Source: a virus (Duplodnaviria > Caudoviricetes). Taken from it: 64,000 bases of DNA. Numbering within the stretch: position 1 is the stretch's first letter; each line of letters opens with the position of its first letter. The DNA is taken from the IMG/VR virus record IMGVR_UViG_3300046318_000439, positions 1 through 64,000 of that record. The stretch is one strand, 5' to 3'. Below, piece by piece: positions 31,291-48,855 of the stretch. The position numbers were made by a program, and so were the translations under genes. Under the pieces are notes generated by a model, which saw only the letters and a program-made list of their open reading frames with translations, did no database searches and was not told where the DNA came from.

Positions 31291-31298
31291 TATTTATA
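31291..31298 (-). promoter_or_regulatory. T4-type late promoter TATAAATA
   Basis: Exact T4 gp55 consensus on the minus strand, ~30 nt upstream of the ATG at 31260. Confidence 0.7.
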
Positions 31299-31933: not shown

Positions 31934-32528
31934 ATCCAGCCTGGGAACCTCTTACGGAAGCTACATTGATTACATTATCCACCGATCTGGCATCCGGATA
32001 ATTGTATAACTCAGTACTATAAAGTTCTATAGCTTTACGTTTTATCTCAATCACATCCGATATATCAGAATACACATTCGGATTGAACCCCCCAAACTGA
32101 CCCATACCCCACATTGTACTAGGCACTACTTCTGAGTAATACAATGCGTTTACGGAGGATGAGGGCTTTGGCCTTGATGCTACTAGGCAGCCTTCCGCGA
32201 CCATTCTATGATCAAGATGCACGTCATTTATACTATGAGTGTATATAATTTCTGGCGCATAATGTTGGACCACTCTGCATATATGTTCTGTAACATGTTG
32301 ATTATCAAGGCTACAGTCTGGATTGTCCCATATCAGAGGAGTAGCACCTAACAAATCACATGATAGTTGAAATGCCTGGCCTCTTTGATCTTGTACATTA
32401 GCTCCAGGCCTGTTACCATTGCAAAGAGACATAACAAGCACTTCATGCTGCTTGGCAAGTTTGCTTATTGTTCCAGACGGACCAAAAGCTTCATCATCTG
32501 GGTGTGCAAAAATAAAAGCTATTCTCAT
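31878..32528 (-). CDS. PIG-L/LmbE-family N-acetylhexosamine deacetylase, 216 aa
   Basis: AHPDDE and H.DH zinc motifs; C-terminal YAEAF. Confidence 0.88.
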   Translation of the reverse strand: MRIAFIFAHPDDEAFGPSGTISKLAKQHEVLVMSLCNGNRPGANVQDQRGQAFQLSCDLLGATPLIWDNPDCSLDNQHVTEHICRVVQHYAPEIIYTHSINDVHLDHRMVAEGCLVASRPKPSSSVNALYYSEVVPSTMWGMGQFGGFNPNVYSDISDVIEIKRKAIELYSTELYNYPDARSVDNVINVASVRGSQAGFNYAEAFQLVFSRDRKTP

Positions 32529-33451
32529 AACATTGCTTTTATAATGGCCTCTAAATTGTATCTTGGCTCATATTGAATGTGCCTTTTGATTTTATCTAAC
32601 ACCGGCACTCGATATTGAATATCCACGAACCCGCTAGAAAACGCTTGCTCATATGGCACCATTTTAATATTCGAAGATGATCCACTAACTGCGATTACCT
32701 TTTCTGCTAACTGAAGCATTGTCACAGGCTCAACATTATTACCGATATTAAACAGTTCACCATTTATCTCTGCTACCTTAATCAATGCATCAATAGCGTC
32801 GTTAATGTGACAGAATGAGCGTACTTGTTGTCCATCTCCATGAACAATCAAATCATCACCAGATTTAGCAGCATTAACGAACCTAGGAAGAACCATACCG
32901 AAATCTCCTAGTTGGCCTGGCCCTACTACATTGAAAAAACGTACAATGGTATATGGACATTCAGAGGTACGTATCATAAACTCCGTAAGAAGTTTGGATG
33001 TTGAATACGCCCAACGCGTTTTAGATGATGGTCCTATGTTAGCATTATCTTCTTCACTAAAAGGTCCTTCACCGTAAACTTCAGAAGTAGAAGAAAAAAC
33101 TACGTGAGTCTTTGCTTTATCAAACAAAGGAACTAATTTGTGGGCTAACTTTACATTATTGTAGAGTGTTTCTTTAGGCTTCTTATCTCCCAAAGCTACA
33201 CCAACCGAACCAGCCAAATGATATATCTTATCTTGCTTCTTAAATAACCTAAGGAGGACATCATCATCCATCTCGCCTAAGTCACCTTCTACAAACTCAA
33301 ATAGATTTTTATACTCAGCAAAATCTTCTTTATTGAACTTAGCTGTGTTTAAGTTATCAATTACTGTTACGCGATTTTGTCTGTCTTGTAGTAGTCTATG
33401 TACAAGATGTTGGCCGATGAAGCCCGCGCCGCCCAGAACTAAAATCTTCAT
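32525..33451 (-). CDS. NAD-dependent epimerase/dehydratase (extended SDR; UDP-glucuronate decarboxylase/ArnA-like), 308 aa
   Basis: GGAGFIG, SSTSEVYG, RWAYSTSK (YxxxK), RFFNVVGP, RSFCHIND. Confidence 0.85.
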   Translation of the reverse strand: MKILVLGGAGFIGQHLVHRLLQDRQNRVTVIDNLNTAKFNKEDFAEYKNLFEFVEGDLGEMDDDVLLRLFKKQDKIYHLAGSVGVALGDKKPKETLYNNVKLAHKLVPLFDKAKTHVVFSSTSEVYGEGPFSEEDNANIGPSSKTRWAYSTSKLLTEFMIRTSECPYTIVRFFNVVGPGQLGDFGMVLPRFVNAAKSGDDLIVHGDGQQVRSFCHINDAIDALIKVAEINGELFNIGNNVEPVTMLQLAEKVIAVSGSSSNIKMVPYEQAFSSGFVDIQYRVPVLDKIKRHIQYEPRYNLEAIIKAML

Positions 33452-34004
33452 AAATCTCTCCTAATGTAATCTCTTCAATATTAATACTTCTCAAATCAAT
33501 CAGTGCTTCTACGACCTCGTCTATATGAGCGATGTAGTGTAGAGTGTCTGGCTCGCTAGGTTTGTAAGCGTTTTTATCAACACATCTTTTTATGAAATTG
33601 CTATTATGCATTCCATAACCATACACAGATGGTATTCTATAGTTGATGTGCTTTAATGTACTATTATTTAGGTAGATCTCCATACACCGTTTTGCAACAT
33701 TATATGACCCTTGAGGTGTATCATTGATGTCTGCAGCTCCCTTAGAAGAAGCATTTATAAACAAAGCAGTTGGACATATTTGAATGGCTGCTCGTGTTGC
33801 GTCCATAATTGAATCCATCACCTCCAGTGGATTACTATTGATGCGTTCCGTAGTAGATGGAGATGCTAAGTGATATACTCTATCACATTCTATCTGAGGA
33901 AAAGGTCGACCCATAGGATGTACAACATAACCACGTTTTAGTAGTTCTTTAACTAAGTTACTTCCTATAAATCCACTAGCGCCAGTAACAACTACTTTTT
34001 CCAT
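33396..34004 (-). CDS. Short NAD-dependent epimerase/reductase (SDR), 202 aa
   Basis: Start corrected to MEKVVVTG (34004); TGASGFIG and YNVAK (YxxxK). Confidence 0.8.
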   Translation of the reverse strand: MEKVVVTGASGFIGSNLVKELLKRGYVVHPMGRPFPQIECDRVYHLASPSTTERINSNPLEVMDSIMDATRAAIQICPTALFINASSKGAADINDTPQGSYNVAKRCMEIYLNNSTLKHINYRIPSVYGYGMHNSNFIKRCVDKNAYKPSEPDTLHYIAHIDEVVEALIDLRSINIEEITLGEIYEDFSSGRRGLHRPTSCT

Positions 34005-34483
34005 ACTTCTCCATCCCACCCCAATCTAATATACCTACACCCTTTAACTTGTAATCCTTCTTTTATGTTCTTTACAAACGTCTGTCGGTCTGGTGGATCA
34101 AAAAGTGGTATGTCTAAAGCCTGCATTAACAATTGATCATCATCCAATAAATGACCTCTTCCGCAAATAGAATAACAACCATTAGATCCAGCATTGACAA
34201 ATATTACCGATCCGTGGTGCTCTGCCCAACCTTTAACATTCAATTTTATTTGCTCGTAGGCTTTGTATAAAACAAATCCAGCAACTCCATATACAATCAC
34301 TCGCTTGCCCTGAGACGCTAAACCAGCTGCAATATTAACCATTGTAGGTTCTTGTATTCCGCAGTTAATCACTCTTTCAGGATATCTACTTACAAACTTT
34401 TTAAATCCCCACATATCAGCATGTAGAAGATAAATGTCATTATTTCCCGCTCTAGCTAAGAATGTGTCCAAAGTACTTCTCAT
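33992..34483 (-). CDS. Transketolase-like, pyrimidine-binding subunit, 163 aa
   Basis: PERVINCGIQEPTMVNIAAGLA..G motif. Confidence 0.8.
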   Translation of the reverse strand: MRSTLDTFLARAGNNDIYLLHADMWGFKKFVSRYPERVINCGIQEPTMVNIAAGLASQGKRVIVYGVAGFVLYKAYEQIKLNVKGWAEHHGSVIFVNAGSNGCYSICGRGHLLDDDQLLMQALDIPLFDPPDRQTFVKNIKEGLQVKGCRYIRLGWDGEVWKK

Positions 34484-35175
34484 AACATACTATCCAATTC
34501 TTCTTGTGTGCTAATTTTTCTATAATGCCATTTCTGTACATTTTCCGACATGCATTGCACGCCGTTACCCTTCGTTGTATTGCAGAACACCACATTGGGG
34601 TGGTGACTGCACAGGTGGTCGAACGCTTTCCTCAATTCCTGCTTATTATGCCCATCTACCTCTTGTACACTCCAGCCGTAGTTATCAAAGAAAGATTTGC
34701 ACGGATCAATCGAAACAATGTCCTTTGTACAACCAGTGACCTGAGCGTTATTATTATCAATGGTTACAAAAATGTTACTAATCTTATGTTGACCTATAAA
34801 CTGTATCGCTTCTAAAATATTGCCCATTTGAAGACTTGCATCACTAAGATTCACCCAAACACGTTTAGGATTTACTAAAGCGATTCCAATTGCAACTCCA
34901 AGAGCATTACCGATTGTTTCGTCAGCATAATCTACAAATGATATTTCATCATGCTTAACTCCAACATTCAGTTGTTCAATATTGTCGATTAACCCCATAT
35001 CCTTCCACACGAGATAATATGCCTGAGCTCCAAACGGTTTTCCAATTACAATACCATCCGTGGGTTTGACATACTGATCTTTAAATAAAACCTCAATGTA
35101 ATCCAACATACTTAATGCTGAAGGTATGTGAGATAGTTTATTGTGGTATGAGTAGGTTAGTAATTTATTCTTCAA
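34480..35175 (-). CDS. Transketolase-like, ThDP-binding N-terminal subunit, 231 aa
   Basis: HIPSALS, SDASLQMG...EA...IDNN, GW.V.EVDGH, TTKG.GV..WH; TTG start overlapping the upstream stop. Confidence 0.8.
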   Translation of the reverse strand: MKNKLLTYSYHNKLSHIPSALSMLDYIEVLFKDQYVKPTDGIVIGKPFGAQAYYLVWKDMGLIDNIEQLNVGVKHDEISFVDYADETIGNALGVAIGIALVNPKRVWVNLSDASLQMGNILEAIQFIGQHKISNIFVTIDNNNAQVTGCTKDIVSIDPCKSFFDNYGWSVQEVDGHNKQELRKAFDHLCSHHPNVVFCNTTKGNGVQCMSENVQKWHYRKISTQEELDSML

Positions 35176-36193
35176 TTTGTTTTGGGGGCTTCACTTTATT
35201 AACATAATAATCGCCAGAGCAAATATCCCAGCGACATATTGAACCACTATTATGCAATATTACCATTTTGGTTACTGCTAGGGGATCAGTTACTAAATTA
35301 GTATAAACATCTTTTGGATTCTGCTCTTGCAGGAAGTTGGTCATTGGTCTAGAGCACACAAATACATTACCATCTCCATTTAGATACATGGTGCGCTTAC
35401 CCGCATCGCATTGCCATCCAGTAAAATCAACCCCTCGTTTAAATAGATCATTAGTTGAATATTCAACTCCATCCACTTTATACATTCGTTGGGTTTTGTT
35501 GTGTTTTTTGTAGAAAGCTAAATGACTGTCTCTAATATCATCACTATATTCGTAAGCGTAATAATCGTATATCATCTCACTATTTAATATATTTTTATAT
35601 TGTAAATACTTCTCTACTCTTTCATAGAACTCATTCAATAATTCTTTAGGTATATTTTCCAACATAATATCTAGATTGTATATTGGAATACCCTTAGCTT
35701 CAAGCATCGCAAAGTTATCTTCAAAGTCTTTCAGCTTATATCCGCCACCACGCGTTTTCAATTCCATGAAGTGGTAGGATATACCAATGCGGTCAAAAAG
35801 GTGTATGATCTTCTCTAACTTAGCTGGAGGTAAAGACAAATTGGTTTGCATTTCAATAAACGCTTCTATTCCAGTTTCTTTTGACTTTTGTTTAATGTAG
35901 GATAAAATGTCATACACTCTGTTATGCCGGGTTGCCTCTCCTCCATGGCAATAAAACACAACTCGTTTAAACTTAACCTTGTTAAAGAATATAAACAATT
36001 TGTCTATGGATGTGATAATATCTTCATATGCATAATGCTTGCCAGAATACCAATAGCAATACTCACACTTTAAGTCGCAAGCTTCCGTGATTCGTATTTG
36101 TACGTGATACTCAGAGGCTATGGCATCAGTTCTTCTCTCGCCCTCAATAATCTCATAGCTCTTTGTTGGCTTTAATCTGCGATAGACATTCAC
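35165..36193 (-). CDS. Radical SAM protein, 342 aa
   Basis: CDLKCEYC, HGGEAT; C-terminal FTGWQC...GDGNVFVC...C; GTG start overlapping the upstream TGA. Confidence 0.85.
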   Translation of the reverse strand: MNVYRRLKPTKSYEIIEGERRTDAIASEYHVQIRITEACDLKCEYCYWYSGKHYAYEDIITSIDKLFIFFNKVKFKRVVFYCHGGEATRHNRVYDILSYIKQKSKETGIEAFIEMQTNLSLPPAKLEKIIHLFDRIGISYHFMELKTRGGGYKLKDFEDNFAMLEAKGIPIYNLDIMLENIPKELLNEFYERVEKYLQYKNILNSEMIYDYYAYEYSDDIRDSHLAFYKKHNKTQRMYKVDGVEYSTNDLFKRGVDFTGWQCDAGKRTMYLNGDGNVFVCSRPMTNFLQEQNPKDVYTNLVTDPLAVTKMVILHNSGSICRWDICSGDYYVNKVKPPKQIEE

Positions 36194-36996
36194 TGGGAGG
36201 CCTCTTTGCTTCTACTAACGTATGTCATTAGTTCTTTATAGAACTCTTCATCATTCATTTCTCGGCCTGTTATCTTGAAGCTTTTTACTCCAGCTTCCTT
36301 CAACTTTTTGAGATGAGGTGAATCGATATCCATACAGTTATATTTACTTTCTTTATTAAAGTCAAATCCTTTAATCCAACACTCCTCTACTTCCTTACTG
36401 TACGGACGACCTGCTGTGTTTTCATCTGCAATTGCCTTAAAGTGCTCATCAAACCGTGAACAATTCCAAATGCATGTATCATTCACCATCACTTCCCATT
36501 TAGTTTTATCTAGTTCTTCTGAACGCTTATCAAATATATGTTCATATCTAGGTACAATCCAGTCATAATCTTTTTCTAGTTGTTTATAGAAGTTAATGTC
36601 TTCGTCTTGTAGAGGAATATTTAACAGTCCCATTCCAGTGATACTGTATATTAAATCATATTTGGGATAGTTAGCTCTAATATATTTACGCAAATCTTCA
36701 TTAACTAAAATAATAGCGTTACCATCTTTATGAAACTTTTCCAGTAGATGATTGCCTACTGGATCATTAAGATCAATTCTATGATTAGTAAACGTGAGGG
36801 CTATACTAATACCTTTATTATAATAGTATTCAATCATACCATCATTATAGTAAATATCTCGGTTGATGCGCCCACCATTCCACTTGCATTTATTAATGCC
36901 ATCATACACAACTAGTTGATCGTTGCCGTTGTACTGAGCTAAAAACTTAATCAGAGGAATGGTTTTACTGAACGCGCCAGCTAAAAGATATCTCAT
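36190..36996 (-). CDS. Peptidase U32-like (UbiU/UbiV/TrhP-type Fe-S) protein, 268 aa
   Basis: E.MVND.C...C, later Cys residues and SFKITGRE (U32 KIEGR-like) near the C-terminus. Confidence 0.6.
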   Translation of the reverse strand: MRYLLAGAFSKTIPLIKFLAQYNGNDQLVVYDGINKCKWNGGRINRDIYYNDGMIEYYYNKGISIALTFTNHRIDLNDPVGNHLLEKFHKDGNAIILVNEDLRKYIRANYPKYDLIYSITGMGLLNIPLQDEDINFYKQLEKDYDWIVPRYEHIFDKRSEELDKTKWEVMVNDTCIWNCSRFDEHFKAIADENTAGRPYSKEVEECWIKGFDFNKESKYNCMDIDSPHLKKLKEAGVKSFKITGREMNDEEFYKELMTYVSRSKEASQ

Positions 36997-36997
36997 A

Positions 36998-37753
36998 TTA
37001 CATTAAAAAACACTTGTCGTGATTGCATATGCCATCATGCTTTGTTCGATAGCAACAATTATACAATTCTAAATTGGGTCCATATAGAAAATACTTACCA
37101 TTGTACATGCATGGCTTACCTCGAGGACTGAAGTTGGGATCTCCCCACACTTCAGAACGGAACTTGCCTAAGCGCTCTACATTTTCAAACTGAATAAACT
37201 TAGTGTAATTGGAGTCCCGTCTTAAGGCATTAAATTCTTCTAAAGCCCCATTGGATATACCATCTCCAAAGTCTGATATTGGTGTTAGAAATAAACTCGG
37301 ATGATTATCTGTTAACTCTTTCACCTTTAGATAGTATTTAATAGCTTCTTTACCAGTGTACATTACATCAATCACTTTTATGTTTACTGGATTGTTATTA
37401 AACAAATCGTCAAGCTGATCCAATCTTATCTCTGTAGGATGTATGCTTATGTTGATCTGAAATGGATGTTTGATCCGCTTCATTACAGCAACACTCTTTT
37501 TGCTAAAGTTAGTTTGTATTACAAACGGAACGCTGAACTCATTAAAACATTCTATAATATGTTCAATGTGGGGATGAATGAAAGGCTCACCTCCAAATAT
37601 AAAAACTTCTACGCCAGGATACTTTTCCCCTAATCCTTTAATAAACTCGCGGAGCACATTCTTATCCATTTCAGTGCGCAATGACTGATCTAAGTTGGTG
37701 CAGTAAAAACACCCAAAATTACATTTAAGAGTTATTTCCCATTCAACTAGCAT
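36998..37753 (-). CDS. Radical SAM protein, 251 aa
   Basis: CNFGCFYC, FGGEPF, QTN; C-terminal Cys cluster. Confidence 0.85.
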   Translation of the reverse strand: MLVEWEITLKCNFGCFYCTNLDQSLRTEMDKNVLREFIKGLGEKYPGVEVFIFGGEPFIHPHIEHIIECFNEFSVPFVIQTNFSKKSVAVMKRIKHPFQINISIHPTEIRLDQLDDLFNNNPVNIKVIDVMYTGKEAIKYYLKVKELTDNHPSLFLTPISDFGDGISNGALEEFNALRRDSNYTKFIQFENVERLGKFRSEVWGDPNFSPRGKPCMYNGKYFLYGPNLELYNCCYRTKHDGICNHDKCFLM

Positions 37754-38648
37754 CTCGCACCTTTAGTTGTTTAAGTAACCCATCGCAATTACAGGCTCGA
37801 TGAGGACACGTCATAGGAATGGTTTTAGTTATTCTTTTGAAATAGTCTGGATCATCTAATAAATTAGTACGAGCATGCTCCATACAGAATTTAATTACTC
37901 CCCCATCCACATCTATCTCATAGTTGTTATTGTAACAACTCCATCCCTTAAAGTTAGTAAGCTTCTGATTATATACTTGATAGTCATTAAACACATCATC
38001 ATCATAACATAGATCTTTTTCAAAATCTTCTAAAAACTTAAAGTACTCCCAAAAATCTTGTCTGTAGTTAAATAGCGTGTGTACGTTCTTTCCGTAAATA
38101 AAATGAGGATGAACTTTGAGACCATCAATCTTGGCACATATTTCAAACATCTCTTTTATTAAAGGCCATAATTTTTTATCATGATGAAGCATGATGTTGA
38201 CCTTACATTGATACCCACGACTTATCATCAACTTGATATTAGATATAAATCTATCTCGATCTGTACAATCAGCTGGATGATAAGAAAACAAAAAAGCTAC
38301 TCTATCACTATACTGGGGATGATCGGTGAAATCTTTCTCTGCATTAGTAACAACATATACGCGGTTAAATTTATCAATCGTGGCAAGTTGGTTTAGGATG
38401 TAATAATAATGAGGGTTGAGGGTAGGTTCTCCACCAAGCAATCCTAGATTGAATGGTAAACTACTTCGTCTTAGGGATTCAATCACCCCATCAATAACTT
38501 CTTTCTTTCCCAGCTTACCCCACTTCTCACCATACTCATTTCTAGCATAGCAGTATGAGCACTTTAACTGACAAATAGTCAAAGTATCCCAATGCACATT
38601 GATGTGATCAGGATTCTGCTGATTGTGATATTGTTTAGAGTATTTCAT
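37743..38648 (-). CDS. Radical SAM protein, 301 aa
   Basis: CQLKCSYC, LGGEPTL; C-terminal FKGWSC...C...CPHRACNCD. Start moved to MKYSKQ (38648). Confidence 0.85.
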   Translation of the reverse strand: MKYSKQYHNQQNPDHINVHWDTLTICQLKCSYCYARNEYGEKWGKLGKKEVIDGVIESLRRSSLPFNLGLLGGEPTLNPHYYYILNQLATIDKFNRVYVVTNAEKDFTDHPQYSDRVAFLFSYHPADCTDRDRFISNIKLMISRGYQCKVNIMLHHDKKLWPLIKEMFEICAKIDGLKVHPHFIYGKNVHTLFNYRQDFWEYFKFLEDFEKDLCYDDDVFNDYQVYNQKLTNFKGWSCYNNNYEIDVDGGVIKFCMEHARTNLLDDPDYFKRITKTIPMTCPHRACNCDGLLKQLKVRDAS

Positions 38649-39249
38649 TTTTAGGAAAGGAGATGTTATCTCCTCCATCTATTGTTTGGTAATATAAAAC
38701 TTTACTTAATGTTTTGATGCTGGAAGCTTTAGATGCTGCATGCATAGTTAGTTTTATGTCGTTGTGAATGTCGCCATCATTAGGAAAGTTAAAATCACAA
38801 ATCACAGACCGTTTGTATATGTGCTGAGATAGTTGTAGATGTTCTATATTAACACTATCCATAAATTCTTTAGGAGTTAACCATGCATCTTTATATAGAG
38901 TCATAAATGTTAGCATGTTTGGGGTTTCATAACGCGGACAATAATTTCCAGCGATCAAATCAGCATCTAATACTTGATCAAAGAACCCTTCTACTAAGTA
39001 ATCATCATCTTCTAAGAAATATACATACTCCCCTTGAGCTGCTGATAGTAGCAGCTGATAAACTCCACAAAGAGTATCTGTCTTATTGTAGTAATAAGTT
39101 ACTTGAGGATGGTTTATTTCCAATATATCCATACTATCATTATTAACTATAACCTCCACATCAGACGTAATTTGAGCAAGCACACTCTCTAGGCAACGAG
39201 TGAACAGCTTAGGTCTATTGTGAGTAGGTATTAGTATGGATAGCTTCAT
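38635..39249 (-). CDS. Glycosyltransferase family 2, 204 aa
   Basis: SILIPTHNRP..RCLESV..Q, A.GEYVYFLEDDD. Confidence 0.85.
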   Translation of the reverse strand: MKLSILIPTHNRPKLFTRCLESVLAQITSDVEVIVNNDSMDILEINHPQVTYYYNKTDTLCGVYQLLLSAAQGEYVYFLEDDDYLVEGFFDQVLDADLIAGNYCPRYETPNMLTFMTLYKDAWLTPKEFMDSVNIEHLQLSQHIYKRSVICDFNFPNDGDIHNDIKLTMHAASKASSIKTLSKVLYYQTIDGGDNISFPKNEIL

Positions 39250-40400
39250 CGCACATCAGTGTTTTTTCTATAGAACGTCACATACTTAATTTTATCTCCA
39301 GGTTCTGGAAATACTTCTGTATCCTTGGCTACTTCTTTCTCAATACCATCGCAAATATAAAAGTGCTTACACTTAAGACAGCTAATATCTTTTTGATAAA
39401 AACGCGCTCTATGAGTGGCACAAGCATCATACGCCAATCCAAGCTTTTCTTCTGGAGTATAAGGTTTACTAACATCGATGGTGTATGTGTACATTTCTCG
39501 ATTCCAATCCCGCACATCATAAATGTGTTGATAGGTTCCAGTGACGTACTTCTCATACCCCTTCATGTAACAGAATGGTACATATCGAACATTTACTGTG
39601 ATTCCATTTTGAAGCTTGTCAATGCATTTTTTAATACCATCTGTCATATCTTTATAAGTGGCATTTTTAAAATCGATTACATTGAAATCCCCCCAATAAT
39701 TTAACGTTAGAAAGTTAGCTTCTAATGGGTTGATAGAATTGATTAGATCTGCATATTCGTTTTCAAGTTGATGGTAATTCCTGTAATATACAGTGGCATT
39801 GGTACGAACAATCATACCAAGTTCTTTTGCGTTCTCTATTCCTTGCAATATTCTTTTGAATGAACCTTTACGTCCAGTTATTTCATCGTGAATCTCTTCG
39901 GTCGCTCCATGCAGACTAAACAATATTTCCTTTAGTCCTCTATCTTTTGACTCCTTCAAAAACTCCATATTAGCAAATTTACCACCATGCGATAAACAGC
40001 TAACACTACTAAATCTTTCATTACAATAGTCTAGTATTTGAAACCAATCTGGGCTGACGGAGCTTTCACCTCCACTAAGATCTACCTCTGTAATACCATA
40101 TGCTAGTAAATGATCTGCACGTTTCTTGACAATTTCAAAAGGAGTCTTAATATCCAACATGTCTTTATAATAGCAGAACTCACAATCATAATTGCAGAAT
40201 GTTCCAGTATCCAATCTAGCACGGTTACATGATGGAGTACTATAATCAATGTCAATACCAGCTACCCCTAACTCAGATAGAGCGTTGGGAGTGGCAGATC
40301 CAAGAGTCGCAACACGGTTTTCCGACATTCTATGCACGGCTTTATTTTCCAGCATGTTGTGGAGCTCGATAGGAATTATTTTACGAGGTTTATTACTCAT
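39246..40400 (-). CDS. Radical SAM protein with C-terminal Cys motif, 384 aa
   Basis: CNYDCEFC, SGGES, FSLHG; C-terminal CLKCKHFYICDG. Confidence 0.85.
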   Translation of the reverse strand: MSNKPRKIIPIELHNMLENKAVHRMSENRVATLGSATPNALSELGVAGIDIDYSTPSCNRARLDTGTFCNYDCEFCYYKDMLDIKTPFEIVKKRADHLLAYGITEVDLSGGESSVSPDWFQILDYCNERFSSVSCLSHGGKFANMEFLKESKDRGLKEILFSLHGATEEIHDEITGRKGSFKRILQGIENAKELGMIVRTNATVYYRNYHQLENEYADLINSINPLEANFLTLNYWGDFNVIDFKNATYKDMTDGIKKCIDKLQNGITVNVRYVPFCYMKGYEKYVTGTYQHIYDVRDWNREMYTYTIDVSKPYTPEEKLGLAYDACATHRARFYQKDISCLKCKHFYICDGIEKEVAKDTEVFPEPGDKIKYVTFYRKNTDVR

Positions 40401-41334
40401 TGTTTACCGCCATTTGTTCTTTAACGTAACCAACAAAAAAATCATTAGGAAGAAGTTCTAACCCATTTAAATTAGAATCAATATCTTCTCTTCTTCTATC
40501 AATTCCCCTGCATTCGTAATCAATTTCATACACAACATTTTTTCCATACACGGCACACTCAACGATAAACCTTGGACTGCAGTCTATCTGCCATCTTGTA
40601 GGGGTGTATATGTACGTATCAAATTTCTCAAAGATGTTTTTAATTGGAGCTCTAACAACTTCTACATTTGGTTGCTTAATACTTTCATACAAGTCTGGAT
40701 TGTTTGTGACAATAAGATATTTCTCACATATTTTTTTATCTATAATATGTTTGATGTTATCTGCAGCAGTGGCTCTCATGCTGGTGGTTAGATACAGTAA
40801 TGCAGTGTTTGTTAAGGATTGCTTTGGGGGTTGATATCTTCCCCATAGTATCTTTTTAACATAATCTACTACTTTAATGTTTAGCTCCTCAAACCGTTCT
40901 GGATATAGTTTAAAGTCTTGCATTAAATGTGTGCGCTTGATTGTTTTATTATTATGAAAATAACCAAAATTATTTTCTGAACACCTTAACAGAAATACAT
41001 TATCAGCATACATTACACAATCAAGGATGCGCCACGAACCATCTACTATACAAACATTATTGGCTAATATTATCTTGGGACGATAACACTCAAACGTGTT
41101 GTCTAATATATCCCTCAACTCTTTGTCGTTGAAATTATATTTGTCCTTTAAAGCTGTGGTGAATATTTCTTTGGTAATTCCATCTGATAAAAGTACAGCA
41201 CATTTAATATTGTTAATACTACAAATATAATAATAGTCTATCATCTCGTAAAGATGACCAGACACTCCATGAGTATAAAAGAATGATGTTGTGAATACTA
41301 AGTCATAATCCTTTAGATTGAGTATCTTCGACAT
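40393..41334 (-). CDS. Hypothetical protein, possibly degenerate GT-B glycosyltransferase, 313 aa
   Basis: Coupled ORF; C-terminal DCSPRFIVECAVYGKNV resembles the GT-B E/D-x7-E...G.pV motif. Confidence 0.45.
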   Translation of the reverse strand: MSKILNLKDYDLVFTTSFFYTHGVSGHLYEMIDYYYICSINNIKCAVLLSDGITKEIFTTALKDKYNFNDKELRDILDNTFECYRPKIILANNVCIVDGSWRILDCVMYADNVFLLRCSENNFGYFHNNKTIKRTHLMQDFKLYPERFEELNIKVVDYVKKILWGRYQPPKQSLTNTALLYLTTSMRATAADNIKHIIDKKICEKYLIVTNNPDLYESIKQPNVEVVRAPIKNIFEKFDTYIYTPTRWQIDCSPRFIVECAVYGKNVVYEIDYECRGIDRRREDIDSNLNGLELLPNDFFVGYVKEQMAVNNE

Positions 41335-42224
41335 TATTGCTTTTCCTTATAAAAGTTTAGCATAAAGTCAGCATGACAATACTCTCTGGGGCATGTTACG
41401 TTCACGCAGGCATTCTGTTTATTGATTCGAATCGGCATAGGAGCTCTCGTGCACGAGTTAACTATTGTACCATCAGATAAGATTTCATATAACAAAGCCT
41501 TACAACGATATCCCTTGAATTTGACCATGTCATCTTTCAAGGCATTGAATATTGGAACATGCACTTCCCGACCGTCGCTATATTGAAAGCGATATGTTTG
41601 TTTATCAGCTATGTTCTTGAGTCTAGGTTCAAATATCTTATAAAACTCATCATTATACGTTATTGTATTGCCTGGAGTGGATAATAATATATTGAGATCG
41701 TATCTTACGCCATGGCGGTCGAACTGATCGATCATGTCTAATATCTGAGGCCAGTCTTTTGGATTATCTGATAAATTTATATGACAGTAGAAGTTCTTGT
41801 CTTTAAAAGCTATACACTTATCAAGAAATGTCTGATCGTAATATTGTGCATGGTATGAGGCTGCTAGTCGTATCTTATCGCTGACAAATGTCTGCTGCAA
41901 GAAATGCATGGGCTTTGATAGATTTGTTTTAATTTCTATCAGTGTACACTTAGACATATCAGATAGTTGCTGAAGGATGTCTATAAAGTTTGGATGAAGA
42001 GTGGGTTCTCCGCCATACAGATCTACTTCAAAATCTGTATCAATCATAGAAAGTCTTTGAAGTACTAGCTTGTGTTTGGATGGCGATGTATCTTTAGAAT
42101 ATCGCTCTACCATTTTGTCTGCAGCGTTACAATAGGTGCACTTAAAGTTACACCAATCTACAAGGAACCATTCAAAGTGTATTGTGTTATAATTTTCAAT
42201 ACCAACATTATCTATAGCGGTCAT
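41334..42224 (-). CDS. Radical SAM protein, 296 aa
   Basis: CNFKCTYC, YGGEPTLHP, KTNLS; C-terminal FKGYRC...DG...C...CPREYC. Confidence 0.85.
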   Translation of the reverse strand: MTAIDNVGIENYNTIHFEWFLVDWCNFKCTYCNAADKMVERYSKDTSPSKHKLVLQRLSMIDTDFEVDLYGGEPTLHPNFIDILQQLSDMSKCTLIEIKTNLSKPMHFLQQTFVSDKIRLAASYHAQYYDQTFLDKCIAFKDKNFYCHINLSDNPKDWPQILDMIDQFDRHGVRYDLNILLSTPGNTITYNDEFYKIFEPRLKNIADKQTYRFQYSDGREVHVPIFNALKDDMVKFKGYRCKALLYEILSDGTIVNSCTRAPMPIRINKQNACVNVTCPREYCHADFMLNFYKEKQ

Positions 42225-42230
42225 TTTGCT

Positions 42231-43148
42231 TTATGGGGATAGCACTTGATCTGGCTGAACTTGTTCGTACCCTAAAATTTCAAACACATTGTGTGGTATC
42301 TGTGGCATTTCAGCTTGCTCATCGAGTGCTGTTAAGGCAGTGTTAATCTTAGACAAGCGCTCCAACTTCGAAGCAAACTGAGTAGTAGGAACTATGTTAG
42401 TATACTCATATTCAGTAATGTACTGGTTGTGTTTTACTATTTGAGGTATATTGATAGTTCGTTCGAGTACATTAATATACCCATTCTCAATTATATCTTC
42501 AAACTTAATGTAATGAACATTGGGTCCTCCCAACTGCCTCATCACGCACATATTTAACAATGACTCCACATACGATTGTCCAACCATATCCTCCACCAGG
42601 AACCATTCTGCAGTGGCTTGTGGGGTATTATCAATTAGATATGTTATGGAAGGATTACGTTCTATACACAAAACCACAACATTGGTTTCTCCTATATCAG
42701 CTCTAACCCGCTCAATAAAGTTTTTAGAGAACAGGCCAGAAACCACATGCACATCAAAGGGACTATTTTCATATGCTTGCATGAATTCTTCATACGATCC
42801 CCCTGTGTTTTCTGGAGGTAGTCCTAAATCTGGAGTAAGATTGTTAAACTTGTCTCCATAGTAGGTTAGTTCTGGATTTGTGAAAGATTTGAGAGTGTCA
42901 ATATTTCTAACAAATGTCAACCCTCCATCAGCAGCGTATAGCAACGTTTCCGATCCATTAGGATCTTCAGAGGAAACTGGTTTATATACAAGTTCGGAGT
43001 CGGCATTATATACTTCAATTGGAATAGTATGAATATTTGCTGTGTAGTTTCCAATTGAATAATTGTCGTAGTTATTAAAGGCGCGGGACACTTCATAAGC
43101 AATCCCTGGCTTAAACGCTCCTACCGACCCTGTTACAAATATTAACAC
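42231..43148 (-). CDS. Hypothetical protein, weak sulfotransferase/P-loop-like resemblance, 305 aa
   Basis: AGGAG RBS and GTG start; N-terminal FVTGSVGAFK, later IERNP and IKFEDII. Confidence 0.45.
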   Translation of the reverse strand: MLIFVTGSVGAFKPGIAYEVSRAFNNYDNYSIGNYTANIHTIPIEVYNADSELVYKPVSSEDPNGSETLLYAADGGLTFVRNIDTLKSFTNPELTYYGDKFNNLTPDLGLPPENTGGSYEEFMQAYENSPFDVHVVSGLFSKNFIERVRADIGETNVVVLCIERNPSITYLIDNTPQATAEWFLVEDMVGQSYVESLLNMCVMRQLGGPNVHYIKFEDIIENGYINVLERTINIPQIVKHNQYITEYEYTNIVPTTQFASKLERLSKINTALTALDEQAEMPQIPHNVFEILGYEQVQPDQVLSP

Positions 43149-43149
43149 A

Positions 43150-43551
43150 CTATCTCCTTAGATACTCTTCTACTATTGAGTTAACAGCATCCCTATCATT
43201 GTAATTGGTTAGCGATTGTAATTTACTAATAATGCCTGTATACTCTTTTTTTTGTTCTTCTAGACGCTTGATATTATCCTTAAGACTTAGATATATCTCT
43301 AAATCATTAATTAAGTATTCGTCCCCTGTCTCGATAATCTTAATGTAGCATTCTTCTTTGTTTTTATCGGTAATAATTATTCCTCTATCGAGAAACTTAT
43401 TATTAATTAGCATTATGGAAATAAAGTCTAGCAGTTTAAATGTTAATAAATCATCCCCAATTATCCCTCGCACTTTTATTTTACATGCGGCTGCCGCTTT
43501 ACCAGCATAGGTACTACTATCAATACATTCAACTTCTTTATACTTCTCCAT
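43150..43551 (-). CDS. Hypothetical accessory protein, 133 aa
   Basis: Its ATG overlaps the TGA of the Cys-repeat gene; helical/coiled-coil C-terminus. Confidence 0.65.
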   Translation of the reverse strand: MEKYKEVECIDSSTYAGKAAAACKIKVRGIIGDDLLTFKLLDFISIMLINNKFLDRGIIITDKNKEECYIKIIETGDEYLINDLEIYLSLKDNIKRLEEQKKEYTGIISKLQSLTNYNDRDAVNSIVEEYLRR

Positions 43552-44309
43552 CAGTCACCTCTTAACATATCCACTGGTAATTTGTCATAATCTACTACGT
43601 AAAATCCATTGTCCGCTTTACTTACAGCATCAGCATATTCTGTGCCTAATAACTCTTGAGCCATAACTCCAACATATGTGGTATCTTTATCCCAAATGTA
43701 GCTAAAGGAATATAATTTTATTCCATGCTCAGAGCCAACATACTTAATATTTTCTTTTAATCGTTTGTCGCTATAGTTGCAATTACATGTGCAAGAGTAA
43801 TTACAATTACATGTACAATAATTACAATTGCATGTGCAATAATTACAGTTGCATGTACATACACCAGCAGCCCCTTGTATATCCGTTATGAGACTATTAA
43901 TGTTGGCAGCTGTGATTGTGCTTCCAATTGATACGCTTGTTGCACCAACATATCCCGCAACGGTTGGCCACAATATTAATTGATTGGCTCCATCGATGTA
44001 TCCATTATTAGGAGGAGATGCTTGAACGTTAAGAGCTGCTCGAAAGTTGTTTATATCGCTAGCAGTAATCGGGGAGCTAGGCGTATATGCCACAGTACCA
44101 ACACGACGTCGTGATCGCTCAGCATTGACAGCAGCAGCAAGTTGCGTATATTGGGATGTTGCAATTAGTTGTCCAGCACTTACATTTGTCAGTGCATGAG
44201 TAGTAGCATCTGATGCGTTTGTGCCATAAACAACAATATATGTTCCACTAAAGCCAGATGCGCTTGTGTTATTGAATGCTGGGACTGGGTACGGGGTGTA
44301 CGTCGCCAT
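43551..44309 (-). CDS. Fibre-like protein with (CTCNCNY)x4 core and C-terminal peptidase S74 intramolecular chaperone, 252 aa
   Basis: GV-CTCNCNY-CTCNCNY-CTCNCNY-S-CTCNCNY directly followed by SDKRLKENI...GVMAQE...VDY (S74 signature). Confidence 0.85.
   Translation of the reverse strand: MATYTPYPVPAFNNTSASGFSGTYIVVYGTNASDATTHALTNVSAGQLIATSQYTQLAAAVNAERSRRRVGTVAYTPSSPITASDINNFRAALNVQASPPNNGYIDGANQLILWPTVAGYVGATSVSIGSTITAANINSLITDIQGAAGVCTCNCNYCTCNCNYCTCNCNYSCTCNCNYSDKRLKENIKYVGSEHGIKLYSFSYIWDKDTTYVGVMAQELLGTEYADAVSKADNGFYVVDYDKLPVDMLRGD
43773..43859 (-). repeat. Four 21-bp coding heptad repeats encoding CTCNCNY
   Basis: 87 nt = 29 codons. The copies differ at synonymous positions, which suggests selection on the protein motif. 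Confidence 0.9.
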
Positions 44310-44323
44310 TTAATTATTCCTTG

Positions 44324-44701
44324 TTAAATTTTTCCTGCTAAGAAGTTTAAATCTTCTTTTGCTTTTGTTTCCGCAATAAACTTTTCATAATCATCTAATT
44401 CTGATGTGATAAAGTCTAATGTTTGTTGATCAGGTTCTTTCATCATATCTACAGCAGAACCGCTTTCCACAACATAACGTACTAGGTCTGCTAAAGAAAA
44501 CCCTAATGCAGCAGAAACCATTTCTATCTGCTCACTAGCTTCAATGGTTTCCCGGCCACCTTTCAAAGCAACCTGCTCCAACGTACGTAATCCTATACCG
44601 AAGCTTTCCATCAATACTGCTCCGACTCCGGAATCTTCTTCTGCAATGTCTTTAATTGCACCAAAAATAATGTCTAATTTATCTTGTATACTCATTTTCA
44701 T
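44324..44701 (-). CDS. Acidic helical hypothetical accessory protein, 125 aa
   Basis: Coupled between a radical SAM gene and the Cys-repeat gene; AGGA RBS. Confidence 0.65.
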   Translation of the reverse strand: MKMSIQDKLDIIFGAIKDIAEEDSGVGAVLMESFGIGLRTLEQVALKGGRETIEASEQIEMVSAALGFSLADLVRYVVESGSAVDMMKEPDQQTLDFITSELDDYEKFIAETKAKEDLNFLAGKI

Positions 44702-45560
44702 TTTCCTTTTCTTTAAAATCGTGGAATTTTAAAGCACTTTCATCATACTTGTATGTTGTAACGTTACCTTCGTCTGTAAAATACGTTTTGGTAGCATGCA
44801 CAACACCGCACCCACTACACATATCGCAGAAAAACTCACAAACTGGTATACTATTATCCCTATTTATCCAATCAGTTCTGAAGCGATTTTTACCGGCTAA
44901 TAACAGCTGTTGATCTTCATCTGAAAGGGTATCCCACGCTATTGACGTAATTACACGCAACGGCTTGAATGTTTTAATAATTCTGTTTATGTCATCATAA
45001 AAAAACTTAATATTATTGTTATGGATAGTATAACGTACTCTGAAACCCATCCTATTTTTCATTAATTTCTTAAATACTGTAATCATGGCTGATGTTGAAT
45101 CAGACCCATCATGGAATATTCTATTACCGTTTCCTACACCATCAAAACTAACATCAATGGACATGAACCCCCTCTTATAGAAAAAGTTCTCCTTTACTTC
45201 TTGCGTAAACTTATCGCTTAGAAATTTAATGCCATTAGTCTCTAAATTAAAATGCACATTCTTTTTCTTGCTGTATGCATACTCCATTAGATAACATACA
45301 TTTTCCCACTGCAATGTTGGTTCCCCTCCAAACAACACTATTAAAGTTTGTTTGTCTGGATCCTCTCTTTCGATAATACCATCAACATATTGTTCAATAT
45401 CTTGCTTTGTTAGAATTTGGGGAGGACGATTCGCCAAATCTTGATAACAATGCTTACATGCCAAATTGCAAACGTTAGTAAAATAAATGACATTAACAGC
45501 TGTATTTTCTTCTACAGGTTTGTCGTCTTTTCTTATAAAGTTTGCAATGATCTCGTTCAT
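44679..45560 (-). CDS. Radical SAM protein, 293 aa (short C-terminal Cys motif)
   Basis: CNLACKHC, FGGEPTL, ETNG, SFDG; CEFFCDMCSGC. Confidence 0.88.
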   Translation of the reverse strand: MNEIIANFIRKDDKPVEENTAVNVIYFTNVCNLACKHCYQDLANRPPQILTKQDIEQYVDGIIEREDPDKQTLIVLFGGEPTLQWENVCYLMEYAYSKKKNVHFNLETNGIKFLSDKFTQEVKENFFYKRGFMSIDVSFDGVGNGNRIFHDGSDSTSAMITVFKKLMKNRMGFRVRYTIHNNNIKFFYDDINRIIKTFKPLRVITSIAWDTLSDEDQQLLLAGKNRFRTDWINRDNSIPVCEFFCDMCSGCGVVHATKTYFTDEGNVTTYKYDESALKFHDFKEKENENEYTR

Positions 45561-45862
45561 TGTATAATCATTTGATGAGAATTCTTATATCGATCATCTT
45601 TAGGACGCGATTGAGCCTCTTTGATAATGTGAGTCATATTATCTAAAAACTTAGGATAGTCAATTTGATATTCGAATAGATGGCCGCGTTCCTGATAATT
45701 AACATACTTACTATCTACACGGGCTTTACCTTTTTTAGCTTCTTCAATTTGCACTGCTAGCTCATCTACAGTCAAAGCATTTCGTGAATCATGCTCTACT
45801 TGACTCATTTCTACTCTCACTGGTATGTCTAGTATACTTTTAAAACGTCTAGGTTCACTCAT
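45557..45862 (-). CDS. Hypothetical accessory protein, 101 aa
   Basis: Overlaps both flanking radical SAM genes (TAATG and ATGA coupling). Confidence 0.65.
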   Translation of the reverse strand: MSEPRRFKSILDIPVRVEMSQVEHDSRNALTVDELAVQIEEAKKGKARVDSKYVNYQERGHLFEYQIDYPKFLDNMTHIIKEAQSRPKDDRYKNSHQMIIQ

Positions 45863-46986
45863 TAGTTTCTACACTCCACGCCTTCATTTTCGACCCCAAC
45901 GTTCTCAATATAATGCAAGATTAAATCTTGGAATACTGGAACGTCTCTGCATTCATCTACCACTCTCATACCCTGCTCGTATGTAATCATAAACAATTCA
46001 CATATACTATCAAGAGGTTTGTTGTCGTTCATAATCTGGGAGTATGTACAGCCAGCATTACAAACTTGTCTTAGCTTACATTCCACACACTTGTCAAAAC
46101 TGTGAGGGCTGAACTTCTCTTGAAAATATTTAAAGTTGTATTGCTCATCAATCTTCATAATCTTTTTACTTGCAAAGCGAGCACAAGGATAAAATTCTCC
46201 ACTGCTCATAAGCACGCCGCCATTGGTACCAGCAAAACATCCTGTTTTACGTTTACCTTTTACTAGACCATACAACGTATCTAAAATAGCAAGTCTCAGG
46301 AATCCAACTGAACACGGAATGCCTGCTTTTAACTTTTCAATATATCGATCAGTTAATCTAATTAATTCTGTACGATATTCTCTGATATCATCAGCCGTCC
46401 ATACATCGTCTCTCACTAAGCTGAAATCTGGATGTTCAATCCCCCAGTCCAACAAAAACTCAAAGTTTTCTGTCATGTCCCTTACATTACCAGGCCAGAT
46501 CATAACTTTGCAACCGTTAGTCAAGTTGACTATAATATCTTTTTTGTATTTGTACAGTTCAAGAATGCCATCAAACAACTTACCAGTTTCTGGGTTTGTG
46601 TTTTCTAGCAGTGGTAGGAGAGGGCGCGTTTCGTTTGAACTCATTCCATCAAAAGACCAAGATACGCCCACACCATTGTCTGTTAGGTACTTGGCTTTCT
46701 CTGCATCAATCATTGTCAGGTTAGTAATAATGTTGATACCTTTACACTTAGGATCTGACTTGAGGTAAGGAACAGCGTGCTGGATTAACTCCCAGTTCAA
46801 TAAAGGTTCCCCGCCAAAGAAGCTAACGTGATATGTGCTATCTCCAGAATTTTTCATCAACACAGGTAAGTCTTGCATGCCTTTGTCAAATACCTCTTTA
46901 GTCATCCAAGTAGGCTTATTAGCAACATAGCAATACGGACATCCTAGATTGCATTTCTCTGTTACTGAAATTTCTAAAGTGAACAT
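45862..46986 (-). CDS. Radical SAM/SPASM-domain maturase-like protein, 374 aa
   Basis: CNLGCPYC, FFGGEPLL, SFDG; SPASM: CFAG...GEFYPC...CVECKLRQVCNAGC...C. Confidence 0.9.
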   Translation of the reverse strand: MFTLEISVTEKCNLGCPYCYVANKPTWMTKEVFDKGMQDLPVLMKNSGDSTYHVSFFGGEPLLNWELIQHAVPYLKSDPKCKGINIITNLTMIDAEKAKYLTDNGVGVSWSFDGMSSNETRPLLPLLENTNPETGKLFDGILELYKYKKDIIVNLTNGCKVMIWPGNVRDMTENFEFLLDWGIEHPDFSLVRDDVWTADDIREYRTELIRLTDRYIEKLKAGIPCSVGFLRLAILDTLYGLVKGKRKTGCFAGTNGGVLMSSGEFYPCARFASKKIMKIDEQYNFKYFQEKFSPHSFDKCVECKLRQVCNAGCTYSQIMNDNKPLDSICELFMITYEQGMRVVDECRDVPVFQDLILHYIENVGVENEGVECRN

Positions 46987-48080
46987 TGTTTAGCCTCAAC
47001 TTTAATAGGGATAATCTTAGAGTTCAGAGCTTTACGTAAAGCATAATGAATAACTTCGTTCATTTTAAACACTTTACATACCTGCCAATTGGATGTATGA
47101 TCACTCCACTTTTCAATATACGTTTCTTTTTCGCTCTTTTCAAACGTAGCAGCATTACACTTCATACAGAATTGAGAATCGCACGATTGACAATCAAGCG
47201 GTTGATTCTTTAAGGCATCCTTAAACATCTCTGTTTTCTCTTTGATCAGAGCATCGATATCTGGTACATTGCGAATGTTGCCTAATACGTGTGCGTGGGA
47301 TTCCTTATACATGCATCCATGACAAGGACTAATGTCACCGTTCAAATCCACGCTGACATAATTGATACCAGCAGAGCACAAGGCTCGCGATTGTTGGAAC
47401 CATCCAAACTTTTCTGGTGGAAGTTTATTTGTGTAGATATACTTTGCTATCTTTGTCAACCCAACTTTAAGTTCTTCCATGTGAACAGCAAATTCTTCCT
47501 GTGACAGAGTAGAATACAAGTCAGGAGTAGGGAAGTAGTTATCCGCCATACTAATGACGTCAAGAAATGCTTCGTAAATTAGATGAAAATGCTTAGCTGT
47601 TAATACTGATTTCATATTAACGTTCAGACCATTTTGTTTAGCAGCAAGATAGTTAGATTTAACTAACGCTGAAGATGGGTTACCTACCTTATCAATTCTC
47701 GTAATGTCGTTTACAGGTTTACCATCATATGATATTTGAAGGCGCAATCTGCCTTGACCTAATTCTTTATGCAACTGAACTAATTCAGCCATGTACTTCT
47801 TTAGATACACTCCATTTGTGTAAAAGAAGAAAGAGAAGTTAGGATCGTGTTTGTACTTATCAATCACCCCTTTGCAAAATTCCCAGTTTACAAATGGTTC
47901 TCCACCCCAAAAATACACGTCCTTTTTAGGATCGGATATTTTGGACATGAATTCGTCAATGTTGTCGAGAGTAACTGATGTGTTTTCTTCAAATTCAGTG
48001 GATAGACCGCACTCATACCCCTCTGAACAGTATGTACATGCTAGATTGCACGTGCTTGTTACGTTAATGTCAATAACCAT
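46974..48080 (-). CDS. Radical SAM/SPASM-domain maturase-like protein, 368 aa
   Basis: CNLACTYC, FWGGEPF, YTNG, SYDG; SPASM: CSAG...GDISPCHGC...CQSCDSQFCMKC...C. Confidence 0.9.
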   Translation of the reverse strand: MVIDINVTSTCNLACTYCSEGYECGLSTEFEENTSVTLDNIDEFMSKISDPKKDVYFWGGEPFVNWEFCKGVIDKYKHDPNFSFFFYTNGVYLKKYMAELVQLHKELGQGRLRLQISYDGKPVNDITRIDKVGNPSSALVKSNYLAAKQNGLNVNMKSVLTAKHFHLIYEAFLDVISMADNYFPTPDLYSTLSQEEFAVHMEELKVGLTKIAKYIYTNKLPPEKFGWFQQSRALCSAGINYVSVDLNGDISPCHGCMYKESHAHVLGNIRNVPDIDALIKEKTEMFKDALKNQPLDCQSCDSQFCMKCNAATFEKSEKETYIEKWSDHTSNWQVCKVFKMNEVIHYALRKALNSKIIPIKVEAKQCSL

Positions 48081-48111
48081 AGTATAAATCTCTCATTGTG
48101 AGTGTTACAAA

Positions 48112-48855
48112 TTACTGTTGTGATCTGTATTCGTAGTTTAATTCCAGTATGGTATTTAGCAATCTAATATCATACTGTTTTGCTAGGGCTTCAGTATCCT
48201 TTGGCAAACAAGGACCTCCAAACCCACGCTTTCCGTCTGGACCAGGTACGCTAAAGTGGGTCGTGCCCATGTATGGGTGATGGATTAACATAGATGTTAG
48301 TTCAGAAAACTCTACTCCCATTTCCTTAGCTACATCGTGTATGGAATTCATATATGTTACCTTTAGGGCTGCAAATGAATTGAGAGTGTATTTAAATAAT
48401 GCTGCAGTCTTAATATCCACGAGAAACGTTTTACCTGGAACTACCGTAGACTGTTGTTCATATATTTGGAGTAGCCGCTCAGCCTTTTCTCTATCACCAC
48501 CAATCACGAGTACTGGCGGCGCTACAAAATCGCTAAAGGATGTTGTTCGCGATAAAAACTCTGGGTTGTATAATATATCAAACTCCTCCAAATGGTGGGG
48601 GAGGATTGTTGATTTAACTACTGTAAGACCCTTGTAATTACTTTTCCTGATTTCCTGAAGTACTTGCTTTAGAATACTATAATCAGTATCGTCAGTAGGA
48701 GTGGGCACGCACACAAAAATGACGTCTGGATTTTGCATGCAGACGTCATTTATTGTTGTTGTGTTATACTGAGGATCACTTATCACAGAAGTTGTATGTT
48801 TGAAGCCGTACTCTACAGCTTTACCTACCATACCATAACCAATAATACCAATCAT
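48112..48855 (-). CDS. ugd: UDP-glucose/GDP-mannose 6-dehydrogenase family (lacks C-terminal UDP-binding domain), 247 aa
   Basis: GYGMVG, CVPTP, KST, NPEFL, GFGGPCLPKD with the catalytic Cys. Confidence 0.85.
   Translation of the reverse strand: MIGIIGYGMVGKAVEYGFKHTTSVISDPQYNTTTINDVCMQNPDVIFVCVPTPTDDTDYSILKQVLQEIRKSNYKGLTVVKSTILPHHLEEFDILYNPEFLSRTTSFSDFVAPPVLVIGGDREKAERLLQIYEQQSTVVPGKTFLVDIKTAALFKYTLNSFAALKVTYMNSIHDVAKEMGVEFSELTSMLIHHPYMGTTHFSVPGPDGKRGFGGPCLPKDTEALAKQYDIRLLNTILELNYEYRSQQ

Follow-up and report, generated by a model that had tools for sequence, protein, structure and literature searches.

A cysteine-heptad protein with an S74 domain beside radical SAM genes in a tailed phage: a possible enzymatically cross-linked virion tip

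What becomes of a phage protein that carries twelve cysteines in 29 residues directly in front of a putatively self-cleaving chaperone? The question is raised by a gene for a 252-residue protein (the Cys protein) in IMG/VR record IMGVR_UViG_3300046318_000439, DNA of a Caudoviricetes virus of which positions 1-64,000 were analyzed (the window, to which coordinates refer unless another locus is named). The gene, called as an open reading frame (ORF) at 43551..44309 on the minus strand, comprises an N-terminal region (aa 1-150, 43860..44309, delimited by alignment and an AlphaFold2 model), a Cys core (aa 151-179, 43773..43859, delimited by sequence and alignment) and a short S74/intramolecular-chaperone domain (aa 180-252 plus stop, 43551..43772, delimited by Pfam and fold matches). 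The explanation we prefer, to which we give about an even chance, is that the protein is trimeric and probably associated with the virion, and that co-encoded radical S-adenosylmethionine (rSAM) maturases would cross-link its Cys heptads before the S74 domain assembles and trims it.

The core reads CTCNCNY three times, a serine, and CTCNCNY once more, and contains 12 Cys, 4 Tyr, 8 Asn and 4 Thr; Cys is absent from the rest of the protein. It ends with Tyr179, which is followed by S180-D-K-R-L-K-E-N. A preliminary description made from the sequence alone was correct in placing 12 Cys and 4 Tyr in 29 residues right before the Ser of SDKRLKEN, and left the strand (minus) unstated. It had also called the repeat copies synonymously diverged, as they are: the four 21-nt units (43839-43859, 43818-43838, 43797-43817 and 43773-43793) differ pairwise at 2-5 positions, all of them synonymous since the four peptides are identical. 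In the AlphaFold2 monomer model the core has a predicted local distance difference test score (pLDDT) of <40 and is unmodelled. The gene has its own ribosome binding site (AAGGAA) within a 14-nt upstream spacer, and the following gene's ATG overlaps with its TGA stop codon (TGATG). We propose this core as the substrate of the rSAM maturases and as the mature C-terminus.

Related proteins are abundant in viruses. A word-indexed search returned 669 full-length homologues and an exhaustive search 2,563 cluster representatives at E<=1e-3. A search of 185,579 prokaryote species genomes gave only six hits, all of them in metagenome-assembled genomes, which makes the family an essentially viral one. 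In 109 aligned homologues that are 38-77% identical overall, every Cys is invariant, together with Y157, Y164, Y179, S180, D181, R183, K185 and several chaperone residues; this invariance excludes a chance origin of the core. The heptad itself was examined in 1,377 repeats from 262 proteins. Cys is present at positions 1, 3 and 5 in 100% of them, position 2 is Thr in 76% and tolerates V, L, I, S and P, position 6 is Asn in 93.5%, and position 7 is Tyr in 91% and otherwise His or Phe. Position 4 is N (75%), D (20%), Q (3%) or E (0.4%), which together account for 98%. Four copies per protein is the mode (181/262) in a range of 2-28. The family profile matched none of the PDB sequences, and within the whole 202-kb genome the CTCNCNY pattern occurs at a single locus. 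Some other loci (L010, L018, L019, L020 and L025) hold tandem arrays of 2-4 paralogous Cys-heptad proteins with differing N-terminal domains; in the L010 array only the middle paralogue has a fused S74 domain.

The S74 domain named in the preliminary description proved to be real by several measures. Pfam Peptidase_S74 (PF13884) matches aa 180-220 over profile positions 1-49 of 58 with 24.2 bits, above the gathering score of 22. The Ser/Lys dyad, S180/K185, is invariant in the 109 homologues and has the S+5 spacing that is likewise found in endoNF (S911/K916) and MyRF (S587/K592) (PMC8326128). The AlphaFold2 model of aa 182-252 has pLDDT values of 78-96. Foldseek against BFVD matched it to proteins with intramolecular chaperone auto-processing (ICA) domains (E 2e-6, root-mean-square deviation (rmsd) 2.5 Å over 72 aa), and VIA matched it to the MyRF ICA domain 7dc3 (Z 3.1, rmsd 1.8 Å over 52 aa). 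Cleavage is predicted between Tyr179 (43773-43775) and Ser180 (43770-43772). In endoNF and MyRF cleavage needs the trimer, and in MyRF trimerization is driven by a C-terminal coiled coil (PMC8326128). Compared with the S74/ICA proteins endoNF, T5 L-shaped fibre, GA-1 gp12 and MyRF, the domain has the same C-terminal position, S-D-x-R-x-K start, dyad spacing and predicted beta-rich fold. It differs in having 73 aa without a C-terminal coiled coil, in following a 29-residue Cys array instead of a long triple beta-helix stalk, and in being split or absent in relatives of the Cys protein.

These variants bear on where the mature protein ends. A full S74 domain is present in 138 of 222 family proteins with repeats; 49 have a 12-aa stub, and in 20 the chain stops at ...CNCNY or no more than three residues from it. 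The stub, with the consensus S-D-x-R-[LV]-K-x-x-I-x-Y-[MLFI], carries the Ser/Lys dyad, and in this class a separate ORF of 88-103 aa with its own ribosome binding site and ATG begins at or just past the stop codon. The overlap with the stop takes the form TAATG in L019 and L010, and the frame differs between phages. These ORFs match Pfam S74 from profile position 16 of 58 (35.6, 37.7 and 22.2 bits); they supply positions 16-58, the part that is absent from the stub, and in addition a coiled-coil helix. Their profile is present in nine loci (L019:12526-12792, L010:11470-11736, L017:10570-10851, L032:10418-10729, L047:10549-10845, L048 from 10170, L031:5505-5795, L057:3624-3926 and L060:2745-3047) and in no locus with a tail-less Cys protein, nor was a stand-alone S74 body found in the tail-less loci. 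In L019 four tandem stub-bearing paralogues are followed by one separate S74 ORF. We know of no description of such a split S74 domain, which appears to be new.

The three architectures thus share one boundary, which supports Tyr179 as the probable mature C-terminus. Either the chaperone is retained at this boundary, in cis or in trans, or the protein ends at the Tyr, and no stronger evidence for this assignment is available. The earlier claim that cleavage would leave the Cys core as the new C-terminus agrees with relatives that end exactly at ...CNCNY or carry the 12-aa stub, which locate the functional boundary at Y|S. The accompanying idea, S74 as a follower, was not supported in the sense of one needed for recognition in the manner of a peptide made on ribosomes and modified after translation (RiPP): relatives without S74 or with a split S74 keep the same maturases, from which it follows that the rSAM association does not require S74. 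Tail-less loci of two lineages (...CNCNY(S)) have a further peculiarity, an ORF of ~155 aa with hydrophobic segments between the S74-less Cys protein and the p133 gene described below (L036:10576-11037 and L030:10507-10977), which was found in such loci only.

Which enzymes could act on the core? Upstream of the Cys gene lie, in this order and partly overlapping, the minus-strand genes rSAM-368 (46974..48080), rSAM-374 (45862..46986), p101 (45557..45862), rSAM-293 (44679..45560) and p125 (44324..44701). The small conserved ORFs p101, between two rSAM genes, and p125, between rSAM-293 and the Cys gene, have no family match. On the other side, p133 (43150..43551, minus, 133 aa, all-helical) is translationally coupled to the Cys gene, with which it has one stop-codon base in common. 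Both rSAM-368 and rSAM-374 combine a CX3CX2C motif (at residues 11 and 12, respectively) with the full 7-Cys SPASM set; rSAM-374 has the canonical CX2CX5CX3C SPASM motif and rSAM-368 matches Pfam SPASM with 28.2 bits. rSAM-293 has CX3CX2C at residue 31 and a single C-terminal auxiliary-cluster motif, CX3CX2CX2C. The best NCBIfam match of all three is PapB, with 139 bits for rSAM-374, 85 for rSAM-293 and 78 for the third enzyme, and the best solved relative of both SPASM enzymes is CteB, the SCIFF thioether synthase (5WGG, the best PDB match of rSAM-374). Judged by sequence, the three are new families resembling known maturases.

The association was followed in 50 IMG/VR loci found via the Cys motif, which fall into 31 groups at 80% identity, with a range of 10 kb for the rSAM genes. 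At least one of the three rSAM types was present in 27 of the 31 non-redundant groups, all three in 23 and p133 in 21. Contig ends truncate three of the four exceptional groups. The association holds despite shuffled gene order between deep clades and whatever the C-terminal architecture, and the Cys protein with adjacent rSAM genes is kept in minimal loci without sugar genes (L017, L018, L026 and L047). The preliminary description had offered a dense tip, with a putative 36 Cys per trimer, that would be either metal-binding or cross-linked; the second option gains support from these three upstream CteB/PapB-like rSAM(/SPASM) genes, a context that it had not cited.

The protein p133 is predicted with a pLDDT of 89 (AlphaFold2) and gave no match in an Atlas search or by Foldseek against PDB and AFDB clusters. 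It has the conserved motif LNN..(K/H)G..IT..N(R/K)E..Y(I/L)..(I/L)..GD..LI..LE.Y, and distant homologues have an extra N-terminal domain of ~60 aa. A PADLOC scan of the small ORFs gave nothing meaningful.

The resemblance to known maturation systems is partial. As in SCIFF (CteA-CteB) and freyrasin (PapA-PapB), an rSAM enzyme with full SPASM motif is encoded beside a Cys-rich repetitive substrate. The phage system differs from these in that its enzymes score below the family cut-offs and lack a RiPP recognition element (RRE), that there are three different maturases and no leader protease, and that each heptad of the putative substrate, a folded protein of 179 aa, has three Cys. In Methanococcus voltae a Cys-repeat substrate of protein size is known: CrpA, on which the SPASM rSAM enzyme CrpC puts ranthionine links (Dieter et al. 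2026, PMC13692751). Like the Cys protein, CrpA has a C-x-x-Q/D type of motif and an N-terminal protein domain, which in CrpA takes part in recognition. On the other hand, CrpC belongs to TIGR04463 and has an RRE, while the phage enzymes reach 37 bits against 525 for this family, and CrpA has 17-residue repeats, no S74 domain and a cellular context.

In the proposed mechanism, the three CteB/PapB-like enzymes would first link core Cys to neighboring side chains as thioethers while the core is still unfolded. The likeliest acceptors would be Asn/Asp/Gln at heptad position 4 and Asn at position 6 (C-x-x-N/D/Q), possibly also Thr2. Each heptad holds two C-x-x-N/D/Q motifs, C1-N4 and C3-N6, and an acceptor role agrees with a position 4 that is limited to N/D/Q/E, a set that corresponds to the acceptors in known ranthionine systems. 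The C-x-x-Q/D motifs of CrpA are proposed cross-linked units (PMC13692751), and PapB is reported to form ranthionine links between Cys and Asp or Glu (PMC9413430). There are three Cys registers and three maturase types, a correspondence that is no more than suggestive. The S74 domain would then gather three chains, after which the Ser180/Lys185 dyad would cut between Tyr179 and Ser180 and free the chaperone. The result would be a cross-linked, redox-insensitive Cys array as the new C-terminal tip.

Cultured relatives of the Cys protein occur in Campylobacter group II phages (CPt10, CP220, CP21, IBB_35 and others), which encode a protein of 534 aa that shares the pre-core helix and has six CxCxCNY heptads. 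This Firehammervirus homologue is 38% identical to the Cys protein over 98 aa (E 5e-14), corresponds to phrog_26958 and is annotated as hypothetical (CPt10_1891, CPT_0180 and IBB_35 gene 3-9; L051:6087-7691 for CPt10 APL46_gp145 and L056:3001-4605 for IBB_35 gene 3-9). The CP21 and WX1 copies are labeled 'putative N-acetylneuraminate pyruvate lyase', which is an annotation label only. Like the Cys protein, the homologue has the helix, the heptads and an rSAM-rich genome around it; unlike the Cys protein, it is twice as long and its heptads are followed by a 200-aa Cys-containing region and not by S74. The same phages carry rSAM-374 and rSAM-368 homologues. Their 2010 genome paper called the 11-12 rSAM genes 'highly unusual' and also mentioned an intragenic repeat of 21 bp, but left the two unconnected (PMC2853527). 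The product of IBB_35 gene 3-9 was among 38 virion proteins found by mass spectrometry, with 2.6% coverage (PMC3322345 Table S2). For the Cys protein itself, PHROG matches labeled 'structural' concern the S74 part only.

The N-terminal region begins with ~30 variable and disordered residues. AlphaFold2, run with 109 sequences, predicts a compact domain with pLDDT >90 for aa 40-150, in which aa 44-149 form three similar strand-helix units (I-x-A-x-x-x-N-x-L); E64, R67 and R68 are invariant. The motifs LIATSQYTQLAAAV, ITASDINNFRAAL and ITAANINSLITDI, which had been picked out earlier as similar helical motifs, are present and fall on the three helices of the model (51-67, 83-93 and 134-148). The best structural neighbor of the domain was BARA, the three-fold beta-alpha-repeat of Atg6/beclin, which was rejected because its Z of 5.0 is in the chance range.

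Several observations weigh against a cross-linked virion protein. The enzymes fall far below every curated maturase cut-off (PapB NF047865, SCIFF TIGR03974, AlbA and CrpC TIGR04463), with 78-139 bits versus 340-850 and a cut-off of 340 for PapB itself, so that their chemistry is unreadable from homology. An RRE is absent from the SPASM enzymes, in which the rSAM motif already occurs at residues 11-12 and the alignment of rSAM-374 and rSAM-368 with CteB starts at CteB residue 101, past its RRE. Other sources of an RRE did not emerge either: p133 was rejected for its all-helical model, which is unlike an RRE, and p101 and p125, which were not folded, had no family match in general scans. To our knowledge, three Cys per seven residues is denser than any characterized ranthipeptide or sactipeptide. 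At L044, whose flanks are complete, there is no rSAM gene within 10 kb, and in the Campylobacter phages the rSAM genes are partly dispersed. The mass-spectrometric support for a place in the virion is weak, being 2.6% coverage of a distant relative, and the N-terminal domain found no credible match, known fibre and virion folds included, with Foldseek against PDB or a wide VIA-align search. Finally, the S74 domain of 73 aa lacks, in the AlphaFold2 model, the C-terminal coiled-coil helix that the split versions have, and a homotrimer prediction with three copies and alignment A2 gave a score of 0.00, which is silent either way.

The setting in the genome is that of tail genes and speaks for a place in the virion. 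The virus record is complete (202 kb, with terminal repeats), the window being part of it; its several tail-fibre-like genes, together with a gp6-like gene for the baseplate wedge (59333-61093), identify the virus as a T4-like myovirus. The Cys-protein locus is flanked by two fibre-like genes on the same strand and lies in a late-strand block near the gp6-like gene. The T4-type late-promoter octamer TATAAATA has two sites in the window (31291-31298 and 61208-61215, both minus) versus 8.4 expected from shuffles; the window scan gave none at the cluster, which is uninformative. Near-identical DNA was found in public runs from freshwater and other aquatic metagenomes of at least 12 studies, and no RNA run was among the runs holding phage DNA. 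Megablast of the 14-kb cluster gave zero matches to GenBank phages, and tblastn of the Cys protein matched S74 regions only, probably owing to low-complexity masking of the repeat. Elsewhere in the window, three consecutive minus-strand ORFs at 1338-6969 (829, 449 and 483 aa) have strong PHROG matches to RCC1-like repeat families ('regulator of chromosome condensation'), and the last of them (483 aa) in addition has a tail-fibre-like N-terminus.

Further rSAM genes occur in an extended co-directional cluster (31878..43148, minus) that is conserved in ~21 loci and comprises p305, rSAM-296, p313, rSAM-384, GT2, rSAM-311, rSAM-251, p268 and rSAM-342 as well as a split transketolase, two epimerase-like genes and a PIG-L deacetylase. 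A UDP-glucose/GDP-mannose dehydrogenase-like gene (48112..48855, minus) forms the upstream edge. The 17-kb co-directional block at 31878-48855 thus holds eight rSAM genes on the minus strand, five beyond the adjacent three. The best match of rSAM-384 is AlbA. For p313, whose place after the Cys gene and p133 is kept in distant loci too, there is a GT-B glycosyltransferase lead (Atlas 0.91). From synteny alone we infer a link between the extended cluster and the Cys protein; the block resembles a sugar pathway that may also decorate this protein.

The leading alternative, which we nevertheless consider unlikely, is a metal-binding or disulfide array without enzymatic links, in which C-x-C-x-C strands line the interior of a triple beta-helix folded by S74. 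The Cys would hold metal ions or Fe-S/thiolate clusters, or form interchain disulfides after lysis, and the rSAM enzymes would act on other substrates, such as the cluster sugars. The His-x-His iron sites of T4 gp37 offer an analogy, and metallothioneins bind metals through CxC-rich sequences. A unit of seven residues in which Cys alternate would fit one beta-helix face, the cluster does contain sugar-pathway genes and further SPASM-less rSAM genes, and an upstream triple beta-helix is what S74 domains normally fold (PMC8326128). However, the adjacent rSAM genes accompany the Cys protein even in the minimal loci that have no sugar genes, their nearest characterized relatives are Cys-peptide thioether synthases, and position 4 is limited to N/D/Q/E instead of metal ligands such as His. 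Metal binding and cross-linking are compatible, as links on some Cys could leave the others to bind metal.

The layout of the locus, with a conserved N-terminus, a repetitive Cys core and adjacent rSAM/SPASM genes, is formally that of a RiPP cluster, and the copy number of 2-28 is as in multi-core precursors. The protein might then be a precursor instead of a virion part, with the N-terminal region as a long leader, S74 as a self-removing follower, and the Cys peptide released against the host or competitors. We regard this as improbable, since family scans revealed no leader protease or exporter in the conserved block and the N-terminal region is a confidently folded 120-aa domain and not a short leader. 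Furthermore, S74 domains are a distinguishing feature of trimeric fibre and spike proteins, the gene lies on the late strand among tail genes, and a distant homologue was detected in virions. Very improbable is a role as Fe-S carrier or scaffold that supplies the eight rSAM enzymes and co-occurs with them without being their substrate: eight such genes do imply a high Fe-S demand and 12 Cys are clustered here, but the protein has no similarity to IscU, NifU or SufA-type scaffolds, a self-cleaving trimerization chaperone, strict Asn/Tyr and up to 28 repeats would be ill-suited to a carrier, and minimal loci with 2-3 rSAM genes still keep the Cys protein.

Returning to the cross-linked virion protein, a more general form of the proposal, to which we give rather less than an even chance, is that many tailed phages mature a virion protein of their own by RiPP-type radical chemistry. 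A trio of SPASM-type rSAM enzymes, perhaps one per Cys register, would cross-link the CxCxCNY array, possibly together with glycosylation by co-conserved transferases, and the self-cleaving S74 domain would then expose the C-terminal tip. S74 would be fused, lost, or split into a 12-aa docking and cleavage stub and a trans-acting body that serves several tandem paralogues. What is combined here in a new setting is two known kinds of process, S74 fibre maturation and rSAM/SPASM maturation of Cys peptides. A literature search on the heptad motif, on rSAM/SPASM enzymes with phage structural proteins and on phage-encoded ranthipeptides found nothing describing the family or the link; a cyanophage paper merely lists an rSAM 'antibiotic synthesis' gene (PMC12801897). 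A phage that cross-links its own, probably virion, protein is thus probably undescribed.

If the proposal is true, RiPP-type radical SAM chemistry would build virus particles and not only secreted peptides, and, with thousands of metagenomic family members in freshwater, marine and gut phages, modification of phage appendages would be widespread. It would bear on host recognition and on virion stability in oxidizing or reducing environments. The fused, split and absent forms of S74 make up a natural experiment on the trans action of an intramolecular chaperone-protease, and the split form could yield a portable 12-residue self-removing tag, while RRE-less relatives of thioether synthases that act on a very dense Cys repeat would be of interest for peptide stapling. 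The proposal would also bear on the long-unexplained excess of rSAM genes in Campylobacter group II phages, in which tests in culture are possible.

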